Positions 3,422 to 26,470 of a stretch of DNA of 31,462 nucleotides are shown piece by piece. The position numbers and the translations under genes are program-made. Origin of the DNA: a virus (lineage: Duplodnaviria > Caudoviricetes). The notes under the pieces were generated by a model. It did no database searches. It was not told where the DNA came from and saw only the letters and a program-made list of their open reading frames with translations. The DNA lies in IMG/VR virus record IMGVR_UViG_3300025635_000107, positions 1 through 31,462 of that record. One strand, given 5' to 3'. Position 1 is the stretch's first letter, and each line of letters starts with the position of its first letter.

Positions 3422-3943
3422 TCACTCGTAAAGAATGTTGATGGTGCCGGCGTCGAATGTATCGGTGCCGTTGACTGTTGTGATGCGTACTCTGTCTAAT
3501 GTATCTGAAGTTGATTTAGAACCGCCACCAGCATAAGGTGTCTGCGTATTTGATGAATCGCCAAGCGCAACGTTAGACACCCACGCATTAGTGTTTATAG
3601 AAGTAATCGTCATAATGCCAGATAAAACAGAAGCCGCCGCCCCATTACTTGTTGCAATAAGCCCAGCGGTTGACGTTGCTGTCGCGGCGTTGTTACCTAC
3701 CGCAGAAGTGTAGCCAGTTGTTTCAACCCCGCCTGAGTCCCCCAACTGAACCAAAATATTACTTGATCCACTTATACTCACCCCGCTAAACATCACCGTA
3801 ATCCGCTTGACCCAACTAGGAATGCTAGTAAAGTCAATGCTGGTTCCGCTAGTTGACGCAACAGCCGTACCACGCTGAATGCTGTCATACACAGCACCGC
3901 TATTCGTTGTTACACCTGCGCTACCGTTAATGACTACTGACAT
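3422..3943 (-). CDS. tail fibre / receptor-binding-like structural protein (paralogue of 5461..6045)
   Basis: S/T/G-rich beta-type sequence; shares DFTSIPSWVKRIT and TLDRVRITTVNGTDTFDAGTINILYE with 5461..6045. Confidence 0.7.
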   Translation of the reverse strand: MSVVINGSAGVTTNSGAVYDSIQRGTAVASTSGTSIDFTSIPSWVKRITVMFSGVSISGSSNILVQLGDSGGVETTGYTSAVGNNAATATSTAGLIATSNGAAASVLSGIMTITSINTNAWVSNVALGDSSNTQTPYAGGGSKSTSDTLDRVRITTVNGTDTFDAGTINILYE

Positions 3944-4168: not shown

Positions 4169-4828
4169 TTATAAACCTTTCAATTTGCAGTTATCTCCAT
4201 GCCATCTAGACATAGCACCGCCAGCGCCAACTTTACCGCAATGCTTGCAAATAATAGTTGAGTATTTTCCTATCTTAACGCCAGTTCTAGCTTTTGACAT
4301 TCTTTCTCTTTGTTCAGCTGACAATACAATGCCTTTTTTTGGTGAAGGTTTACCAAGTCTAGCAAGGCGCATTTTAAGTCTAGCTTCATCAGATGCTTTA
4401 TGGCCTTTTCTTTTGGTTGGCTTGCCTTTCCTAACCTCGCTCATTCTTGCAACATGAGCGGCAGTGAAAACCATACCTTTTCTTTTTTCGCTCACTTTTT
4501 TTGCTATTTCCGGCCTTTTCATTGGGTTTAATTCCCCAACAGAAGCGCCGAGAGCAGTGTTTTTTGAGTTGTAAGTATCCGAAAAAAATGCGTCAAGCAC
4601 TGCTTGTTCTATTTCCCTAGCTTCACTTTCTGTTTTTGCTTCACATTGAACAATAAACTGAAAACTGTCTATACCGTATTTATTCACCGCATTTTGTAAA
4701 TAGTTGCAATGATGCCTGTTGTTTCTTAATTTTGACTTGTGAGTTATTAATCTTTTTTTAACGTCAATTGAGCTACCGACGTAAAATTTACGTGATTGTG
4801 TATGTACTATTGTGTACACACCAATCAT
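4169..4828 (-). CDS. GIY-YIG homing endonuclease with NUMOD3-like repeats
   Basis: GVYTIVH...FYVGSS...KRLITH catalytic motif; repeated (R/K)MSxxRxG; terminal CKHC...H...C; visibly AT-richer than the flanks. Confidence 0.9.
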   Translation of the reverse strand: MIGVYTIVHTQSRKFYVGSSIDVKKRLITHKSKLRNNRHHCNYLQNAVNKYGIDSFQFIVQCEAKTESEAREIEQAVLDAFFSDTYNSKNTALGASVGELNPMKRPEIAKKVSEKRKGMVFTAAHVARMSEVRKGKPTKRKGHKASDEARLKMRLARLGKPSPKKGIVLSAEQRERMSKARTGVKIGKYSTIICKHCGKVGAGGAMSRWHGDNCKLKGL

Positions 4829-5460: not shown

Positions 5461-6045
5461 TCACTCGTAAAGGATGTTGATGGTGCCAGCGTCGAAGGTG
5501 TCGGTGCCGTTGACTGTTGTAATGCGGACGCGGTCTAATGTGCCTGAGAGGGCAATAACGCCCCCGCTAGTCCTAGACCCCGCAGTTCCACCGCCGTTTA
5601 CGCCGCCTTGCGAACAATCCATAACCCAAGTATTGCCCGTAATATTGTTTAACCGCATTGCACCAACTACAGTTGCGGCAGCACCAACTCCTGTTGTAAG
5701 TAATAAGCCAGAAGTGCTAGAGGTAGAATCACTAGAGGAAGAGAATGTACTGGTGGCGTAAGACAAGTACCCAGATGTTGTAAAACTACCCGAGCCTAGT
5801 TGTATTTGTATAGCGCTTGACCCGTTAGTGCTTAAACCATTAAACATTATCGTAATACGCTTCACCCATGACGGTATGCTAGTAAAGTCAACGCTTGTGC
5901 TAGAAGCCGTTACCGCTGTGCCCGACACAATCGGAGCCAACGTTCCAGTAGTTGCTACCAATGTCTGCGTATTGCTGCCAGCAATAGCAGGAGCCGATAC
6001 GGTAATCGATCCGCTTGTGTCGCCTGAAAGAACTAAACTTGCCAT
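5461..6045 (-). CDS. tail fibre / receptor-binding-like structural protein (paralogue of 3422..3943)
   Basis: AAGGA RBS; S/T/G-rich; last 26 aa identical to 3422..3943. Confidence 0.7.
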   Translation of the reverse strand: MASLVLSGDTSGSITVSAPAIAGSNTQTLVATTGTLAPIVSGTAVTASSTSVDFTSIPSWVKRITIMFNGLSTNGSSAIQIQLGSGSFTTSGYLSYATSTFSSSSDSTSSTSGLLLTTGVGAAATVVGAMRLNNITGNTWVMDCSQGGVNGGGTAGSRTSGGVIALSGTLDRVRITTVNGTDTFDAGTINILYE

Positions 6046-19365: not shown

Positions 19366-19728
19366 TCAAGCAAGAAACTTCAATTTATAGAGCGTTGACA
19401 TGTACAGCCCTTCAATTTCGTCGATGATATTGTGGATTGCCGTGCATTCCTTATCGACGACCTTGTAGCGCGCAGCATGTATTTCATCTAGCTGATCCTG
19501 CAGGAATTCCAAAATATTGCCCTGCTTTTTGGCAGACTGCAACGTAATTGGGCCGATCAGGCCGTACTTGCCCTGATAAGCTTCAGCAAAACTGTCCGCT
19601 AAATCAACAATACCGTCGTAAAACTTCTGCAACGCCTTGTGTTTGGCGTAACTGCGGGTGTTCAGATGCACTGAATGAGCCACATCACGACCCAAAAACA
19701 GCGTACCTACAAAGTCTGCGGCGTTCAT
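19366..19728 (-). CDS. ferritin/Dps-like four-helix protein
   Basis: H..H...SYAKHKAL..FYD....D..AEAYQG...NIIDEI...YKL pattern; ATGA overlap with the portal stop. Confidence 0.7.
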   Translation of the reverse strand: MNAADFVGTLFLGRDVAHSVHLNTRSYAKHKALQKFYDGIVDLADSFAEAYQGKYGLIGPITLQSAKKQGNILEFLQDQLDEIHAARYKVVDKECTAIHNIIDEIEGLYMSTLYKLKFLA

Positions 19729-22643: not shown

Positions 22644-22904
22644 TCAGCACTTCCATCGTTTAAGTGACGCTTTCGCGCGTTCGCCGTCTTTAGCCTTGGC
22701 AGCAACGGCCCCCATTCTGGCGCAGAACGACTTTTTCCTACCCTCATCAGCCTTTGTCTTCGGGTGCGGCGCCGGTGCCTTCAAGTTGCTGCCTGTCTCG
22801 CGGTTGTACTTCTCTCGCCCTTTGGCTGTTAGGCCGGCGCCCTTACTGACGGGCAGCTTCTCGCCCCGGCCAACGCTTAACGACACACCTTTTTTCGTTG
22901 TCAT
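22644..22904 (-). CDS. small basic protein (GLTAKGR...RKKSFCARM...RWKC)
   Basis: ATG at 22904 forms a TAATG overlap with the terminase stop. Confidence 0.75.
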   Translation of the reverse strand: MTTKKGVSLSVGRGEKLPVSKGAGLTAKGREKYNRETGSNLKAPAPHPKTKADEGRKKSFCARMGAVAAKAKDGERAKASLKRWKC

Positions 22905-24442
22905 TACGCCCCCATCCAATTGGTCGCGGCGATTGTTCGCTGCTGATACCCATCGCTGCGCTTCGTCGCCCGCTCGTACCCCGACTCACGACTCGCCACC
23001 GGGAACGCGAACGTCACTGCCAGTGCGTCGGCGGCGTCCGGTGACGCGAGGCCACGCGACTTCATTTCTTTCTTGCCTTCCAGATAGATTGTTCCCGACG
23101 AGTCGGGCTTTTTCATCGGGCCGGTCAGGTCGGCTTTTAGTTGCCTATCGTTGGGGATACTGGCCGTTCGCAGCCAATCCTTCATTGCACCCCACATCTC
23201 AGCACGCTTGTTGCCCCACATGACGGGCTTGCTCGACTTCCATCCGAAGTTCACTCCCCGCACCTTGTAACGCTGTTCTTTTAGCCTGTCAAGTACCCCG
23301 TAGCCCAGACCACCTTCATCGATTACCGTCAGTGCTGGCCGGTACTCTTCGATGGCGTCAATCACCCGGCCAACGGTCGTCATGGTGTCCTCGCCGTGGT
23401 ACCGCTTGATCGCGACTAGATCCCGTCCTTGTCGGACGACGATGACGGTGGCGTCCGCGCCGCCGCGAGCTGGGTCAACGCCGACAACAATTGGCGCCGT
23501 CTCGTCCTTGTAGCGTGGCCGGTTGGCGGCATCGTCGACAGCAGACGCACCAATAAACTGATCTTCGCCAGCCGAAGGGAATTCACCGTAGACCTCAACC
23601 CTAGCCTGTGGCGAATCCTCGCCATATTCCGCAATGATCTGCTCATATATCTGCTTGTCCGTGTCCTCGACCGTTCGGGAGTCAATGTTCTCCGTGTGCC
23701 AGAAGTTACGCTTGGCGTTGAAGCACTCGTAGAAATAGCCTTGATTACGCCGGGGGTTGGAAAACGCAAACCAATACCTGTCTAAAATGGGTTCGGTAAA
23801 GAAGCCCGCACCGACCGACCAGATGGCGTCGGGGATACCTGAGGCCTCGTCGAAGATCAGCATCATGCCGTCGTGGTTGTGAACACCGGCGTAGCTGTCC
23901 GGATTCTCTTCCGACCAGAGCTTGCCTTCAGCCGCCCAGTAACGCGTACCTTTCTTCAAGTCGCGCTCAACCAACTCCGTGATCCATTTGGCAGGCACCA
24001 GTTTGGTTGCGCTGATCTCCCACCAGTGGCTGTTAATCACCATCGCCTGCCACTTGGTTAGCTCACCCCATGTCACGGATCTAAGCTGGGCTTCTGAGTT
24101 GGCGCTGACGATCACACTAGACCCGATGCGGGTGGACAGCATCCACAAGACGAGCCAGCTGACTAAGGCGGACTTACCGATCCCTCGACCGGACGCGACT
24201 GCAGTGCGTAGGGCGTCCATGTCAATCTGACCACGGTTGTTTTTAATATGGCTAGCTATCCTGCGCAGTATCTTGCGCTGCCAGGTGCGCGGGCCTTTGA
24301 ACTTGGCCAGCGGCGTGTTGGGTTGCCCCCACGGGAACGCAAACAACACGAACGCCTCGGGGTCGTCAGCGATGGTCGGCGCCCAGAGGCGCGTCATTAG
24401 GAGCTGCTCGCCCTCGGCGTCATAGATCGGCTGTTGCGCCAT
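22904..24442 (-). CDS. terL: terminase large subunit
   Basis: Walker A SGRGIGKS, Walker B LIFDEASG, FSNP motif, nuclease motifs GVDPARGGAD and SPDAADAL. Confidence 0.95.
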   Translation of the reverse strand: MAQQPIYDAEGEQLLMTRLWAPTIADDPEAFVLFAFPWGQPNTPLAKFKGPRTWQRKILRRIASHIKNNRGQIDMDALRTAVASGRGIGKSALVSWLVLWMLSTRIGSSVIVSANSEAQLRSVTWGELTKWQAMVINSHWWEISATKLVPAKWITELVERDLKKGTRYWAAEGKLWSEENPDSYAGVHNHDGMMLIFDEASGIPDAIWSVGAGFFTEPILDRYWFAFSNPRRNQGYFYECFNAKRNFWHTENIDSRTVEDTDKQIYEQIIAEYGEDSPQARVEVYGEFPSAGEDQFIGASAVDDAANRPRYKDETAPIVVGVDPARGGADATVIVVRQGRDLVAIKRYHGEDTMTTVGRVIDAIEEYRPALTVIDEGGLGYGVLDRLKEQRYKVRGVNFGWKSSKPVMWGNKRAEMWGAMKDWLRTASIPNDRQLKADLTGPMKKPDSSGTIYLEGKKEMKSRGLASPDAADALAVTFAFPVASRESGYERATKRSDGYQQRTIAATNWMGA

Positions 24443-24869
24443 TCGTCACTTTAGTGGGTAGCTGTTGAGGTTTCTGTTCCGTAATCAGCCCGTCGATGAC
24501 GCGCTCTTGTGCCTGCTGCAGCGCCTGCGTGATGCTGATCTTGTTCGTGATGTCGACGCTAATCTCTTGGCGGGCCGTCCAACCGTGGCTGTGCTGCAGG
24601 ATCGCGAGCGCCGCCTTGCTGTCGCCAGCGCGGGCTGCTTCGCGCAGGTGGCTACTTGCCTCCATCTCACTGTCGGCGCGGCCTTTCATGGCGGCCATGT
24701 CCGCAGCCGGGTCAAGCTCGCACAGCTGCCTGAACTCGGTGGGCAGCATACCAGCAGCCAGCGCGAGCGAGTCGCCCTTGAGTCCAAGCGCAGCCGCGTC
24801 ATAGATGGCCTGCAGCCTGGCTTCGGTCGCCTCGACTTTGCGCGGGGTGAACGGGATGGATTTGAACAT
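24420..24869 (-). CDS. terS: putative terminase small subunit
   Basis: 149-aa helical protein directly upstream of and overlapping terL. Confidence 0.7.
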   Translation of the reverse strand: MFKSIPFTPRKVEATEARLQAIYDAAALGLKGDSLALAAGMLPTEFRQLCELDPAADMAAMKGRADSEMEASSHLREAARAGDSKAALAILQHSHGWTARQEISVDITNKISITQALQQAQERVIDGLITEQKPQQLPTKVTNGATADL

Positions 24870-24875
24870 GGCTGC

Positions 24876-24903
24876 ATATTAGCGCATTTGCGCGTGATGT
24901 CAA
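24876..24903 (-). promoter_or_regulatory. sigma70-type promoter of the terminase/late operon
   Basis: Minus strand TTGACA-16 nt-TAATAT, then 6 nt to the ATG at 24869. Confidence 0.65.
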
Positions 24904-24905
24904 TT

Positions 24906-24923
24906 TGTGGGCAATGTGGGCTA
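24906..24923 (+). repeat. 9-bp tandem repeat TGTGGGC(A/T)A x2
   Basis: TGTGGGCAA TGTGGGCTA. Confidence 0.8.
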
Positions 24924-25020
24924 TTTTTCTGGTGGTCGTTGGCTGCGTGTAAAAAATAAAAAATTTTGTGCAGACCCTCCGTTTTCGTGACCGGCCAGCC
25001 GCCGGCCCCCCGCCCCCCAG

Positions 25021-25148
25021 GTTAGTGAGCACTCACTTACATGGTTGTCAGCCTGGCAAGTTAGTAAGCACTAACTAATTAGGTTAGTGAGTACTCACTT
25101 ACAAAGTTAGTGAGCACTAACTAACCAGGTTAGTGAGCACTAACTGTT
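25021..25148. repeat. array of five palindromic sites matching the SlmA-binding sequence (SBS)
   Basis: GTTAGTRAGYACTMACT at 25021, 25060, 25083, 25106 and 25129; exact GTGAGTACTCAC at 25087-25098. The repeat is certain; the SlmA identity is inferred from the motif match. Confidence 0.8.
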
Positions 25149-25167: not shown

Positions 25168-25176
25168 TGTGGATAA
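25168..25176 (-). promoter_or_regulatory. consensus DnaA box
   Basis: TGTGGATAA, the reverse complement of TTATCCACA. Confidence 0.6.
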
Positions 25177-25199: not shown

Positions 25200-25226
25200 T
25201 GTGGGCAATGTGGGCAATGTGGGCCA
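25200..25226 (+). repeat. 9-bp tandem repeat TGTGGGC(A/C)A x3
   Basis: TGTGGGCAA TGTGGGCAA TGTGGGCCA. Confidence 0.85.
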
Positions 25227-25462
25227 TGGTTTAAAATCGCACCGGCTACTGTAAACGCGGTCCTATTCCTGACAATATTGCCATAATGATAATGAAAAAA
25301 CACAAAAATCAGCTTTACAGAATAATCTGTCACATAGTCCACAAAATGCCAAAAGCCGCTCGCAGACTAGGTTTCGCCGTGGGTCAAATGGGGCGTTTTT
25401 TGGCGGCCACAATCCGCCCATTTCTGTCACAAAAAGACACCAAAATAAATGCAAAACAATCC

Positions 25463-25490
25463 TTGACATTTATTTTTGTGCCGCTATAAT
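25463..25490 (+). promoter_or_regulatory. consensus sigma70 promoter (early)
   Basis: TTGACA (25463-68), 16-nt spacer, TATAAT (25485-90); A-rich UP-element-like sequence upstream. Confidence 0.88.
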
Positions 25491-25556: not shown

Positions 25557-25721
25557 ATGAAAACCGCTTCATGGGTAATTGTAGAGAACGCCACCGGCAA
25601 CGCCATTTTTGAGACGTTCAACCCTGCTATTGCAGACAAAATAAACCGCGACAAATACTCAGCGGTGCCAATCCTGCAATATCTGCAGGCGCTCAATAAA
25701 TCATTGAAAGGCCAAAAATGA
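25557..25721 (+). CDS. hypothetical early protein
   Basis: GGAGA RBS before ATG 25557 (MKTASWVIVE...); first ORF after the promoter. Confidence 0.75.
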   Translation: MKTASWVIVENATGNAIFETFNPAIADKINRDKYSAVPILQYLQALNKSLKGQK

Positions 25722-25804
25722 AACCTACCATTCTCGAAATCGCTTGCGCCGTGTTCGGCTTTGCATCACTCGCGCTATTTGTCTTTATGTTGCTGGCTTA
25801 CTAA
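25718..25804 (+). CDS. small membrane peptide, 28 aa (MKPTILEIACAVFGFASLALFVFMLLAY)
   Basis: Translated by hand; ATGA overlap; AAGG upstream; single TM helix. Confidence 0.6.
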   Translation: MKPTILEIACAVFGFASLALFVFMLLAY

Positions 25805-25825
25805 CTAACTAGGGGAACCGACCAA

Positions 25826-26470
25826 ATGAAAATCTCTGTTACTTCAAAACTTGACGGCGTGCGCTCATGGTCTCTGCAGGCGCTCGAAACATGCCCAGGT
25901 AGTATCGCGGCGCCTGGCCAGCTGGTCGACGCCTGCGCAGGCTGTTATGCCACTACCGGCAACTATAGGTTTGAGAATGTCAAGGCACCGCGCAGGCACA
26001 ATAAGGAAGACTGGCAGCGGATCGAATGGTGCGACGATATGGTTCAGGAACTAGCCAAAGATACGCATTTCCGCTGGTTTGATTCCGGCGATATGTATAC
26101 GCTCGCTTTGGCTGAAAAAATACTCGAAGTTATGCGCCGCACGCCATGGGTAAAACATTGGCTCCCGACGCGCATGCACAAGTTTCCGAAGTTTCGGCAG
26201 GTACTGTCTGAAATGCAGGCGCTGAAAAATGTATGCGTGCGGTTTTCATCCGACAGCGTCACTGGCCAGTACACAAAAGGCCTTCACGGTTCCGTGATCG
26301 TGCCCACGCCCGACGATGTCAAGCGCGGTATGACATTGTGCGGCGCTTATGACAATGGCGGCGCATGTGGCCCGTGCCGTGCCTGCTATGACAAGAAAAT
26401 TAAAGTAATTGCTTATCCGGCGCACGGCGTCAAGATGAGCAAGGTAATTCGCATCAAATTGGCGGCGTGA
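25826..26470 (+). CDS. Gp88-like Cys-rich protein (probable Fe-S binding)
   Basis: SKL...SWSL...TCPGS...CAGCYA, FRWFDSGD, HWLPTR and C-terminal CGPCRACY match my recollection of the 'gene product 88' family. Confidence 0.75.
   Translation: MKISVTSKLDGVRSWSLQALETCPGSIAAPGQLVDACAGCYATTGNYRFENVKAPRRHNKEDWQRIEWCDDMVQELAKDTHFRWFDSGDMYTLALAEKILEVMRRTPWVKHWLPTRMHKFPKFRQVLSEMQALKNVCVRFSSDSVTGQYTKGLHGSVIVPTPDDVKRGMTLCGAYDNGGACGPCRACYDKKIKVIAYPAHGVKMSKVIRIKLAA

Follow-up and report, generated by a model that had tools for sequence, protein, structure and literature searches.

The window analysed here, a stretch of 31,462 nucleotides from a tailed virus (Caudoviricetes; IMG/VR record IMGVR_UViG_3300025635_000107), covers most of a phage genome with a P22-like coat and portal and its own polymerase A and primase, and its best-matching sequencing runs are freshwater metagenomes, with no RNA dataset listed. 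Two complete relatives (42 and 34 ORFs scanned) gave no match to an integrase, a repressor or ParA/ParB, which fits a lytic phage. Elsewhere in the window, two paralogous genes (3422-3943 and 5461-6045, both phrog_29482) share DNA stretches that are 73-89% identical, and the region between them holds a GIY-YIG homing endonuclease gene (4169-4828). A DUF5856 gene (19366-19728), labelled a starvation-inducible regulator in PHROG, directly follows the portal gene and is kept in relatives.

The locus of interest lies between the terminase genes and the early genes. On the minus strand, the large subunit gene terL (22904..24442; phrog_2, E 9e-44) is preceded by a probable small subunit gene, terS (24420..24869), proposed from its position before terL and from a match to a terminase small subunit cluster (0.95); it gave no Pfam or PHROG match. 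Rightwards from the terS start (24869) come an A-tract followed by a GC/C-tract (24951..25018), an array of five SlmA-type sites (25021..25148), a DnaA box, 9-bp repeats, a sigma-70 match and the early genes; the tracts, the repeats and the palindromic sites are given no strand. The first early genes (25557..26470, plus strand) comprise small ORFs and a GP88-family gene (PF17338, phrog_25603, phrog_1392). A perfect sigma-70-type promoter match (25463..25490, plus strand) stands ahead of them, 314 bp from the last copy of the array, and a weaker promoter-like site (24876..24903, minus strand, 10/12 match) stands ahead of terS. Three promoter-like matches were found against 1.5 in shuffles, and no such element is overlapped by a site of the array.

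Several smaller features surround the array. Tracts similar to the A-tract and GC/C-tract occur in relatives, including the array-less L016, L205, L206 and L374, and they may represent a packaging or genome-end signal. The perfect DnaA box (25168..25176, minus strand; consensus as given in 10.1101/866236), overlooked by the sequence-only reading that preceded this analysis, is the only exact one in the window and lies 20 bp past the array; beside the array it is exact in 54 of 60 relatives and within one mismatch in 59. The 9-bp direct repeats (25200..25227, with further copies at 24906-24924) flank the array on either side and may serve an origin or packaging; because their unit changes between relatives, a phage protein is their likely reader. 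In the first spacer, between copies 1 and 2, a pattern scan picked out a second, different quasi-palindrome of 15 bp (25045..25059). With at most one mismatch it occurs in 60 of 80 terS loci (whole locus), in either orientation among relatives, and in 9 of 124 viral and 0 of 120 bacterial loci carrying the SlmA-type motif; it is commoner in host genomes than its control, a surplus that is probably a coding-word bias. A scan with what we take to be the parS and matS motifs gave no parS in the window, parS half-sites in 8 of 60 relatives with a full site at three mismatches in one, and matS in none of the 60. The half-sites lie 180-320 bp upstream of terS (L004, L005, L009, L016, L043, L055, L056 and L059), mostly as tail-to-tail pairs, and could be the site of another regulator.

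SlmA is a TetR-family nucleoid-occlusion protein that blocks cell division over DNA. Judged by its letters, the unit of the array is a full 20-bp SlmA site, reaching beyond the 12-bp core. Identity was scored against SBScons, the 20-bp palindrome within the consensus oligonucleotide of PMC4423959, which is that of E. coli. It amounts to 18/20 for copy 1 (25021..25040), 14/20 for copy 2 (25060..25079), 17/20 for copy 3 (25083..25102), which has the exact 12-bp core, 16/20 for copy 4 (25106..25125) and 14/20 for copy 5 (25129..25148), whose right flank is decayed. The sequence-only reading had described five such copies in non-coding DNA, the last four 23 bp apart, with an exact core in the third and one to three changes in the others. 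Each of these details is correct: the DNA is non-coding, with divergent genes on its two sides, all five 20-mers are found at the starts it gave, their spacings are 39, 23, 23 and 23 bp, and their mismatches to GTGAGTACTCAC number 1, 3, 0, 2 and 2. It had noticed no full copy elsewhere, and the five copies are indeed the window's five top 20-mer scores. Their scores stand above those of shuffled windows, 200 of which gave a best score of 16 once and of 17 never, while the 12-bp core alone, at up to three mismatches, matches the window 10 times against 9.15 expected and is thus not above chance. An RNA or hairpin role was set aside, since the good folding of the array strand (z -4.5) is a consequence of its palindromic units. 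Contigs from two other samples (X4 record 8, X6 record 20) span the array without differences, and it is therefore not an assembly artefact.

A search of related phages at this locus, as the sequence-only reading had proposed, showed that 63 of 80 relatives carry two or more copies ahead of terS; one more has a single copy within the 188 bases that are available, and the remaining 16 carry none. Among the relatives that share the gene order and offer enough DNA, 59 of 60 carry the array. One relative (L001) is identical to the window and perhaps of the same population. Eight of the 16 array-less records have at most 110 bases of upstream DNA; among these eight, one record shows five copies at the opposite end and one is cut off at the array. 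In seven, terS is immediately preceded by a coding region, and L016, at 93% TerS identity, has the same layout and no array. The coding region ahead of TerS in L028, L029, L030, L042, L045, L047 and L063 (88-93% identity) represents another gene order. As the relatives without an array include some at 66-71% terL identity and one at 93% terS identity, the array is dispensable in this phage family.

Where present, the array is variable in size and placement, with three to seven copies, a first site 94-154 bp from the terS start (47 loci) and a last site 296-686 bp from the early promoter (39 loci). The phasing presented by the sequence-only reading as part of the feature did not survive this comparison: the regular 23-bp interval belongs to this genome only, spacings of 22-23 bp make up 79 of 351 across 171 distinct arrays, and helical phasing as a functional feature was rejected over the same arrays (R = 0.12 at 10.5 bp). 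Variation within the sites is more constrained. In 183 sites from 52 terS loci, which are related, so that the 340 core mismatches are not independent events, 322 of them fall at positions 3, 6, 7 and 10. Purine or pyrimidine exchanges of the kind that E. coli SlmA tolerates (a purine at 3, a pyrimidine at 6, and symmetrically; PMC3020112) account for 268 of the 340; a further 54 are C10A, outside the published rule yet present in the natural site SBS12.

The motif extends well beyond this family. The exact 20-mer was found in 124 viral stretches from 9 of 64 parts scanned, from which about 950 are estimated in all. A terminase gene lies within 1.5 kb in 41 of the first 80 viral stretches, recognised in 20 by similarity to window proteins and in 21 by PHROG (149 of 271 ORFs submitted), and the TerL pieces beside these 20-mers form five groups with no BLAST link between them, two single pieces being set aside. 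Tandem arrays in metagenomes had a terminase match nearby in 45 of 80 cases and an SlmA-like gene in 0 of 80. The sequence-only reading had seen no TetR gene, and none appeared: TetR family matches number 0 among the 44 window proteins, none of 23 virus records, 14 of which are 90% complete or more, has a TetR_N match over the cut-off, and no cognate TetR or repressor was recognised in the phage genome, which has many small ORFs without a family that may include an unrecognised binder. A motif that sits beside unlinked terminases, is absent in some close relatives and comes with no cognate gene indicates a binder supplied by the host.

BLAST, which misses variant sites, found no array among 50,697 GenBank phage records; many of these phages infect hosts with slmA. 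Single intergenic sites are present in cultured phages, namely Klebsiella phage Bp5 (one mismatch; L369 6004-6023) and PY100-like Yersinia phages (three mismatches; Yersinia phage PY100, L368 15491-15510). Three further 30-base queries against GenBank phages returned scattered short matches only, and one plasmid query returned one weak match. A phage that is unrelated to the window and has an amidoligase gene cluster (L375, G005:C117) was binned in a genome that bears slmA; its contig opens (1-500) with a C run, a pair of DnaA boxes and a pair of SlmA-type sites, followed by the early genes.

The identification of the sites as SlmA-type sites in the sequence-only reading is supported; what it missed is that many other TetR proteins use this palindrome as their operator. 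The exact 20-mer gave 120 listed matches in bacterial genomes of many phyla, about 340 being estimated, and a TetR gene adjoins 42 of the first 80. Among the 36 of these 42 neighbours that could be parsed, T33 and T34 each occur in 33 and E45 in 27, and H51, F52 and K55 are also held in common with SlmA. The palindrome is thus likely the operator of a cross-phylum TetR subfamily with a predicted SlmA-like recognition helix (L209-L288). Since the 20-mer is not unique to SlmA, the chromosomes of candidate hosts were examined.

In a sample of 151 genomes from the order that holds the betaproteobacterium Aquitalea, which is not the whole order, slmA exceeded the cut-off in 110 and was not found in 41. 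All 11 aligned betaproteobacterial proteins share T33, T34, S44-F52 and N102 with E. coli SlmA; F65 is nearly invariant, R101 is mostly K and L105 mostly M. R73 is not conserved; in E. coli its replacement by D disables the regulation of FtsZ. A search of open-access PMC and bioRxiv found no functional study of a betaproteobacterial SlmA. In E. coli K-12, taken as a positive control, the phage-derived pattern matches 16 times at up to three mismatches and its reversed form 4 times; SBS17 is among the 16 sites, none of which falls between 0.41 and 2.64 Mb.

Chromosomal placement in the sampled order follows the presence of slmA. The comparison used the 16 chromosomes with slmA and a located dnaA, 13 of which had matches; two duplicates that overlapped, and a control match on a second contig, were excluded. 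The origin half contains 39 of the 41 matches to the motif and 20 of the 36 to the control (p = 4e-6), or 34 of 35 and 17 of 31 once four multi-contig genomes are removed. One later match brings the count to 40 of 42, to be compared with 10 of 19 in the seven closed slmA-less chromosomes that had matches (Fisher p = 2e-4; p = 0.015 when taken per genome); in one of the closed genomes without slmA (G261), the three matches also lie in the origin half. Matches cluster around dnaA in G283, G345, G264, G306, G294, G213 and other chromosomes of the sample. Real and control matches number 287 and 295 with slmA, and 73 and 178 without it; the motif shows no excess in slmA-bearing genomes, but it is retained where slmA is present. 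Counting at two mismatches likewise gave no excess (23 of 151 genomes, similar to the control), and a looser pattern permitting C at position 6 was rejected as it brought only more noise. No chromosomal site with zero or one mismatch occurs in the 151 genomes. Their sole exact match belongs to a contig of an unrelated phage, assigned by binning to a slmA-bearing genome; it is found close to the end of that contig, accompanied by two DnaA boxes and ahead of early genes. The dispersed motif avoiding the terminus that the sequence-only reading expected of the host is seen in E. coli and in this betaproteobacterial order, in which slmA is frequent and which is a candidate and not a proven host.

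These results strengthen the SlmA-type identity of the sites through the 20-bp match, the tolerated variation, the recurrence beside unlinked terminases, the lack of a phage TetR, the frequency of slmA in Betaproteobacteria and the origin-proximal motif in slmA-bearing chromosomes, and we consider SlmA very probably the binder of the array. The array could instead be bound by another host regulator of the TetR family with an SlmA-like helix, which the phage would titrate or use as a sensor. The TetR genes adjoining 42 of 80 bacterial matches, with their shared helix residues, speak for such a protein, as do weaker SlmA-like paralogues in 7 of the 151 genomes. An autoregulated operator would give the chromosomal sites with zero or one mismatch that are missing from the sample, the origin-proximal placement and the retention of the motif track slmA, and six of nine host matches checked lie inside reading frames, as chromosomal SBS do; such a regulator is improbable. 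SlmA-type nucleoid occlusion has been studied in E. coli, Klebsiella and Vibrio, and from the placement of the motif it appears to operate across Betaproteobacteria.

The phage host is itself likely a betaproteobacterium, as suggested by habitat, by binning and by cultured relatives, which are distant. Binning placed a contig (L283) that has three sites and the layout seen here in a genome labelled Betaproteobacteria. A relative at 82% coat-protein identity was binned in Aquitalea's order, but it carries no array and slmA was not found in its draft genome; the nearest cultured terminases, at 50%, are those of Ralstonia phages. For another relative, DSL-LC05, in which no array was found over the 11 kb read, Enterobacterales are the predicted host according to PMC10611076. 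The order of G001 was dropped as a host proxy because the locus genes do not look betaproteobacterial and the sample differs from that of Aquitalea's order; slmA was found in 0 of its 201 genomes. The bin concerned (L270, G001) is labelled Janthinobacterium lividum, has Bacteroidota-like genes and is probably mislabelled. Endolysin homologues provided no useful host names.

SlmA and FtsZ are a solved pair. We infer that a betaproteobacterial host's SlmA binds the array and stops FtsZ rings, holding off host division, a reading that we consider evenly poised between right and wrong. The array would load host SlmA onto the phage genome with no protein of its own required, and DNA-bound SlmA would stop FtsZ rings over the phage DNA and then, as the phage replicates, all around. 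The phage would benefit from a cell that is not cut by a septum and grows larger for the burst. Presumably the array lies at the genome end that enters first.

Each E. coli SBS binds two SlmA dimers, or four monomers (PMC4423959), and the nucleoid holds about 500 SlmA dimers for 24-52 sites (PMC3573117). If fifty phage genomes each contributed five sites, SlmA would face 250 near-consensus sites, while a 1.7-Mb chromosome of a candidate host has seven matches, none better than two mismatches. In E. coli, a multicopy plasmid with tandem SBS keeps Z-rings from forming anywhere in the cell (PMC3573117, PMC4117426), and colony formation is blocked at about 4-fold SlmA with an SBS plasmid against 40-fold without it (PMC4117426). 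This 4-fold level, which the sequence-only reading had also overlooked, means that a full block at native SlmA is not established, and the realistic effect may be a local block over phage DNA. A broader proposal would have arrays acquired independently in several unrelated aquatic phage lineages, next to a DnaA box at the first-entering end, out-competing the few weaker chromosomal sites and turning SlmA into a cell-wide division block; the phage would then take over its host purely through DNA, and immune sensors would have no protein of the phage to recognise. We advance it tentatively, as somewhat less probable than not.

SlmA may also bind for another purpose. Together with the DnaA box, the array could form a docking region at the first-entering end, for tethering, entry, shielding from nucleases or the start of replication. 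Here and in unrelated phages, arrays adjoin an A-tract/C-tract at the junction of terS and the early genes, a fixed position that a division block does not require, although this junction is also the main non-coding space of compact genomes, and some phages have sites at several places, even between late genes. Within 300 bp, an exact DnaA box accompanies 51 of 59 close arrays, 5 of 20 that are more distant and 7 of 92 from unrelated phages, a group in which 0.44 would be expected. SlmA binds lipid membranes (PMC7468209), and for T5 a preprint puts forward that conserved DnaA boxes take part in injection (10.1101/866236). The T5 model is a proposal only, and the place of the genome ends in the present phages is judged from contigs; docking seems to us unlikely.

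Other explanations turn on the neighbouring genes. From a position between two promoter-like sites, host SlmA could regulate the early or the late phage promoter in the way it activates Pchb of Vibrio cholerae from 167 bp upstream (10.1101/141812). Plain repression is unlikely since no site overlaps a promoter, and as to activation, a shift of 3-12 bp cuts that of Pchb (10.1101/141812), whereas copy number and the distances to terS and to the early promoter vary freely among the phages; promoter control is accordingly decidedly improbable. A packaging or replication signal for a phage protein, TerS or a primase-helicase, with the likeness to SlmA sites due to convergence, would suit repeats that adjoin terS and a candidate end signal, and the terminase genes near 41 of the first 80 viral motif loci. 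The same 20-mer accompanies five unlinked terminase groups and different TerS families, close relatives at 58-93% TerS identity do without it, and the repeat does not change with its cognate TerS as the sequence of a pac or cos repeat would. The 9-bp repeats, changing from phage to phage, fit a phage-read signal better, and we find a packaging role for the array very improbable.

To return to the division block, a SlmA site is a known kind of element in a new setting on a phage, and searches of open-access PMC and bioRxiv full text found no paper on phage-borne SlmA sites. If the block holds, the strategy would represent a novel form of host takeover. All phage division inhibitors in the literature found are proteins, and at least one of them, T7 Gp0.4, sets off an anti-phage system when complexed with FtsZ (PMC13423816). 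With a DNA-made block, the host would have no phage protein of this kind to sense, and the effect could precede all phage gene expression. Arrays could also mark the hosts of abundant uncultured freshwater phages, and the core claim is testable with a 128-bp fragment.

Among known systems, the array shares with the chromosomal SBS of E. coli and V. cholerae (PMC3020112, PMC4423959, PMC6549158) the same 20-bp quasi-palindrome and the tolerated changes, and the phage-derived pattern recovers both SBS17 and the terminus-free distribution of the E. coli sites. Phage sites differ in being tandem (3-7 copies) and nearer the consensus than chromosomal matches. TetR operators of proteins with an SlmA-like helix-turn-helix have the same 20-mer directly upstream of TetR genes in many phyla; these are mostly single and beside their own gene, whereas no TetR gene accompanies the arrays in the phage genomes. 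The V. cholerae chb site (10.1101/141812) is likewise non-coding and upstream of a promoter; it is single and of strict geometry, and the phage arrays are free in number and distance. Like the injection-stop DnaA boxes of T5 (10.1101/866236), the arrays are conserved sites for a host protein in non-coding DNA near the first-entering part, as far as that part can be placed here; T5 has eight precisely placed DnaA boxes with a proposed role, and the preprint makes no mention of SlmA.

The laboratory plasmids pUC-2xSBS and p2SBSK (PMC3573117, PMC4117426) share the proposed mechanism, as their tandem SBS delocalise SlmA and block Z-rings in the manner proposed for the phage. They are artificial, carry two sites and are lethal at about 4-fold SlmA, whereas the phage array is natural and has five. 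In outcome, the proposed division block would join the array to lambda Kil (PMC3961180), T7 Gp0.4 (PMC13423816) and SPO1 gp56 (10.1101/2020.02.06.938217), which are phage proteins; the array, made of DNA only, would employ the host's own effector.
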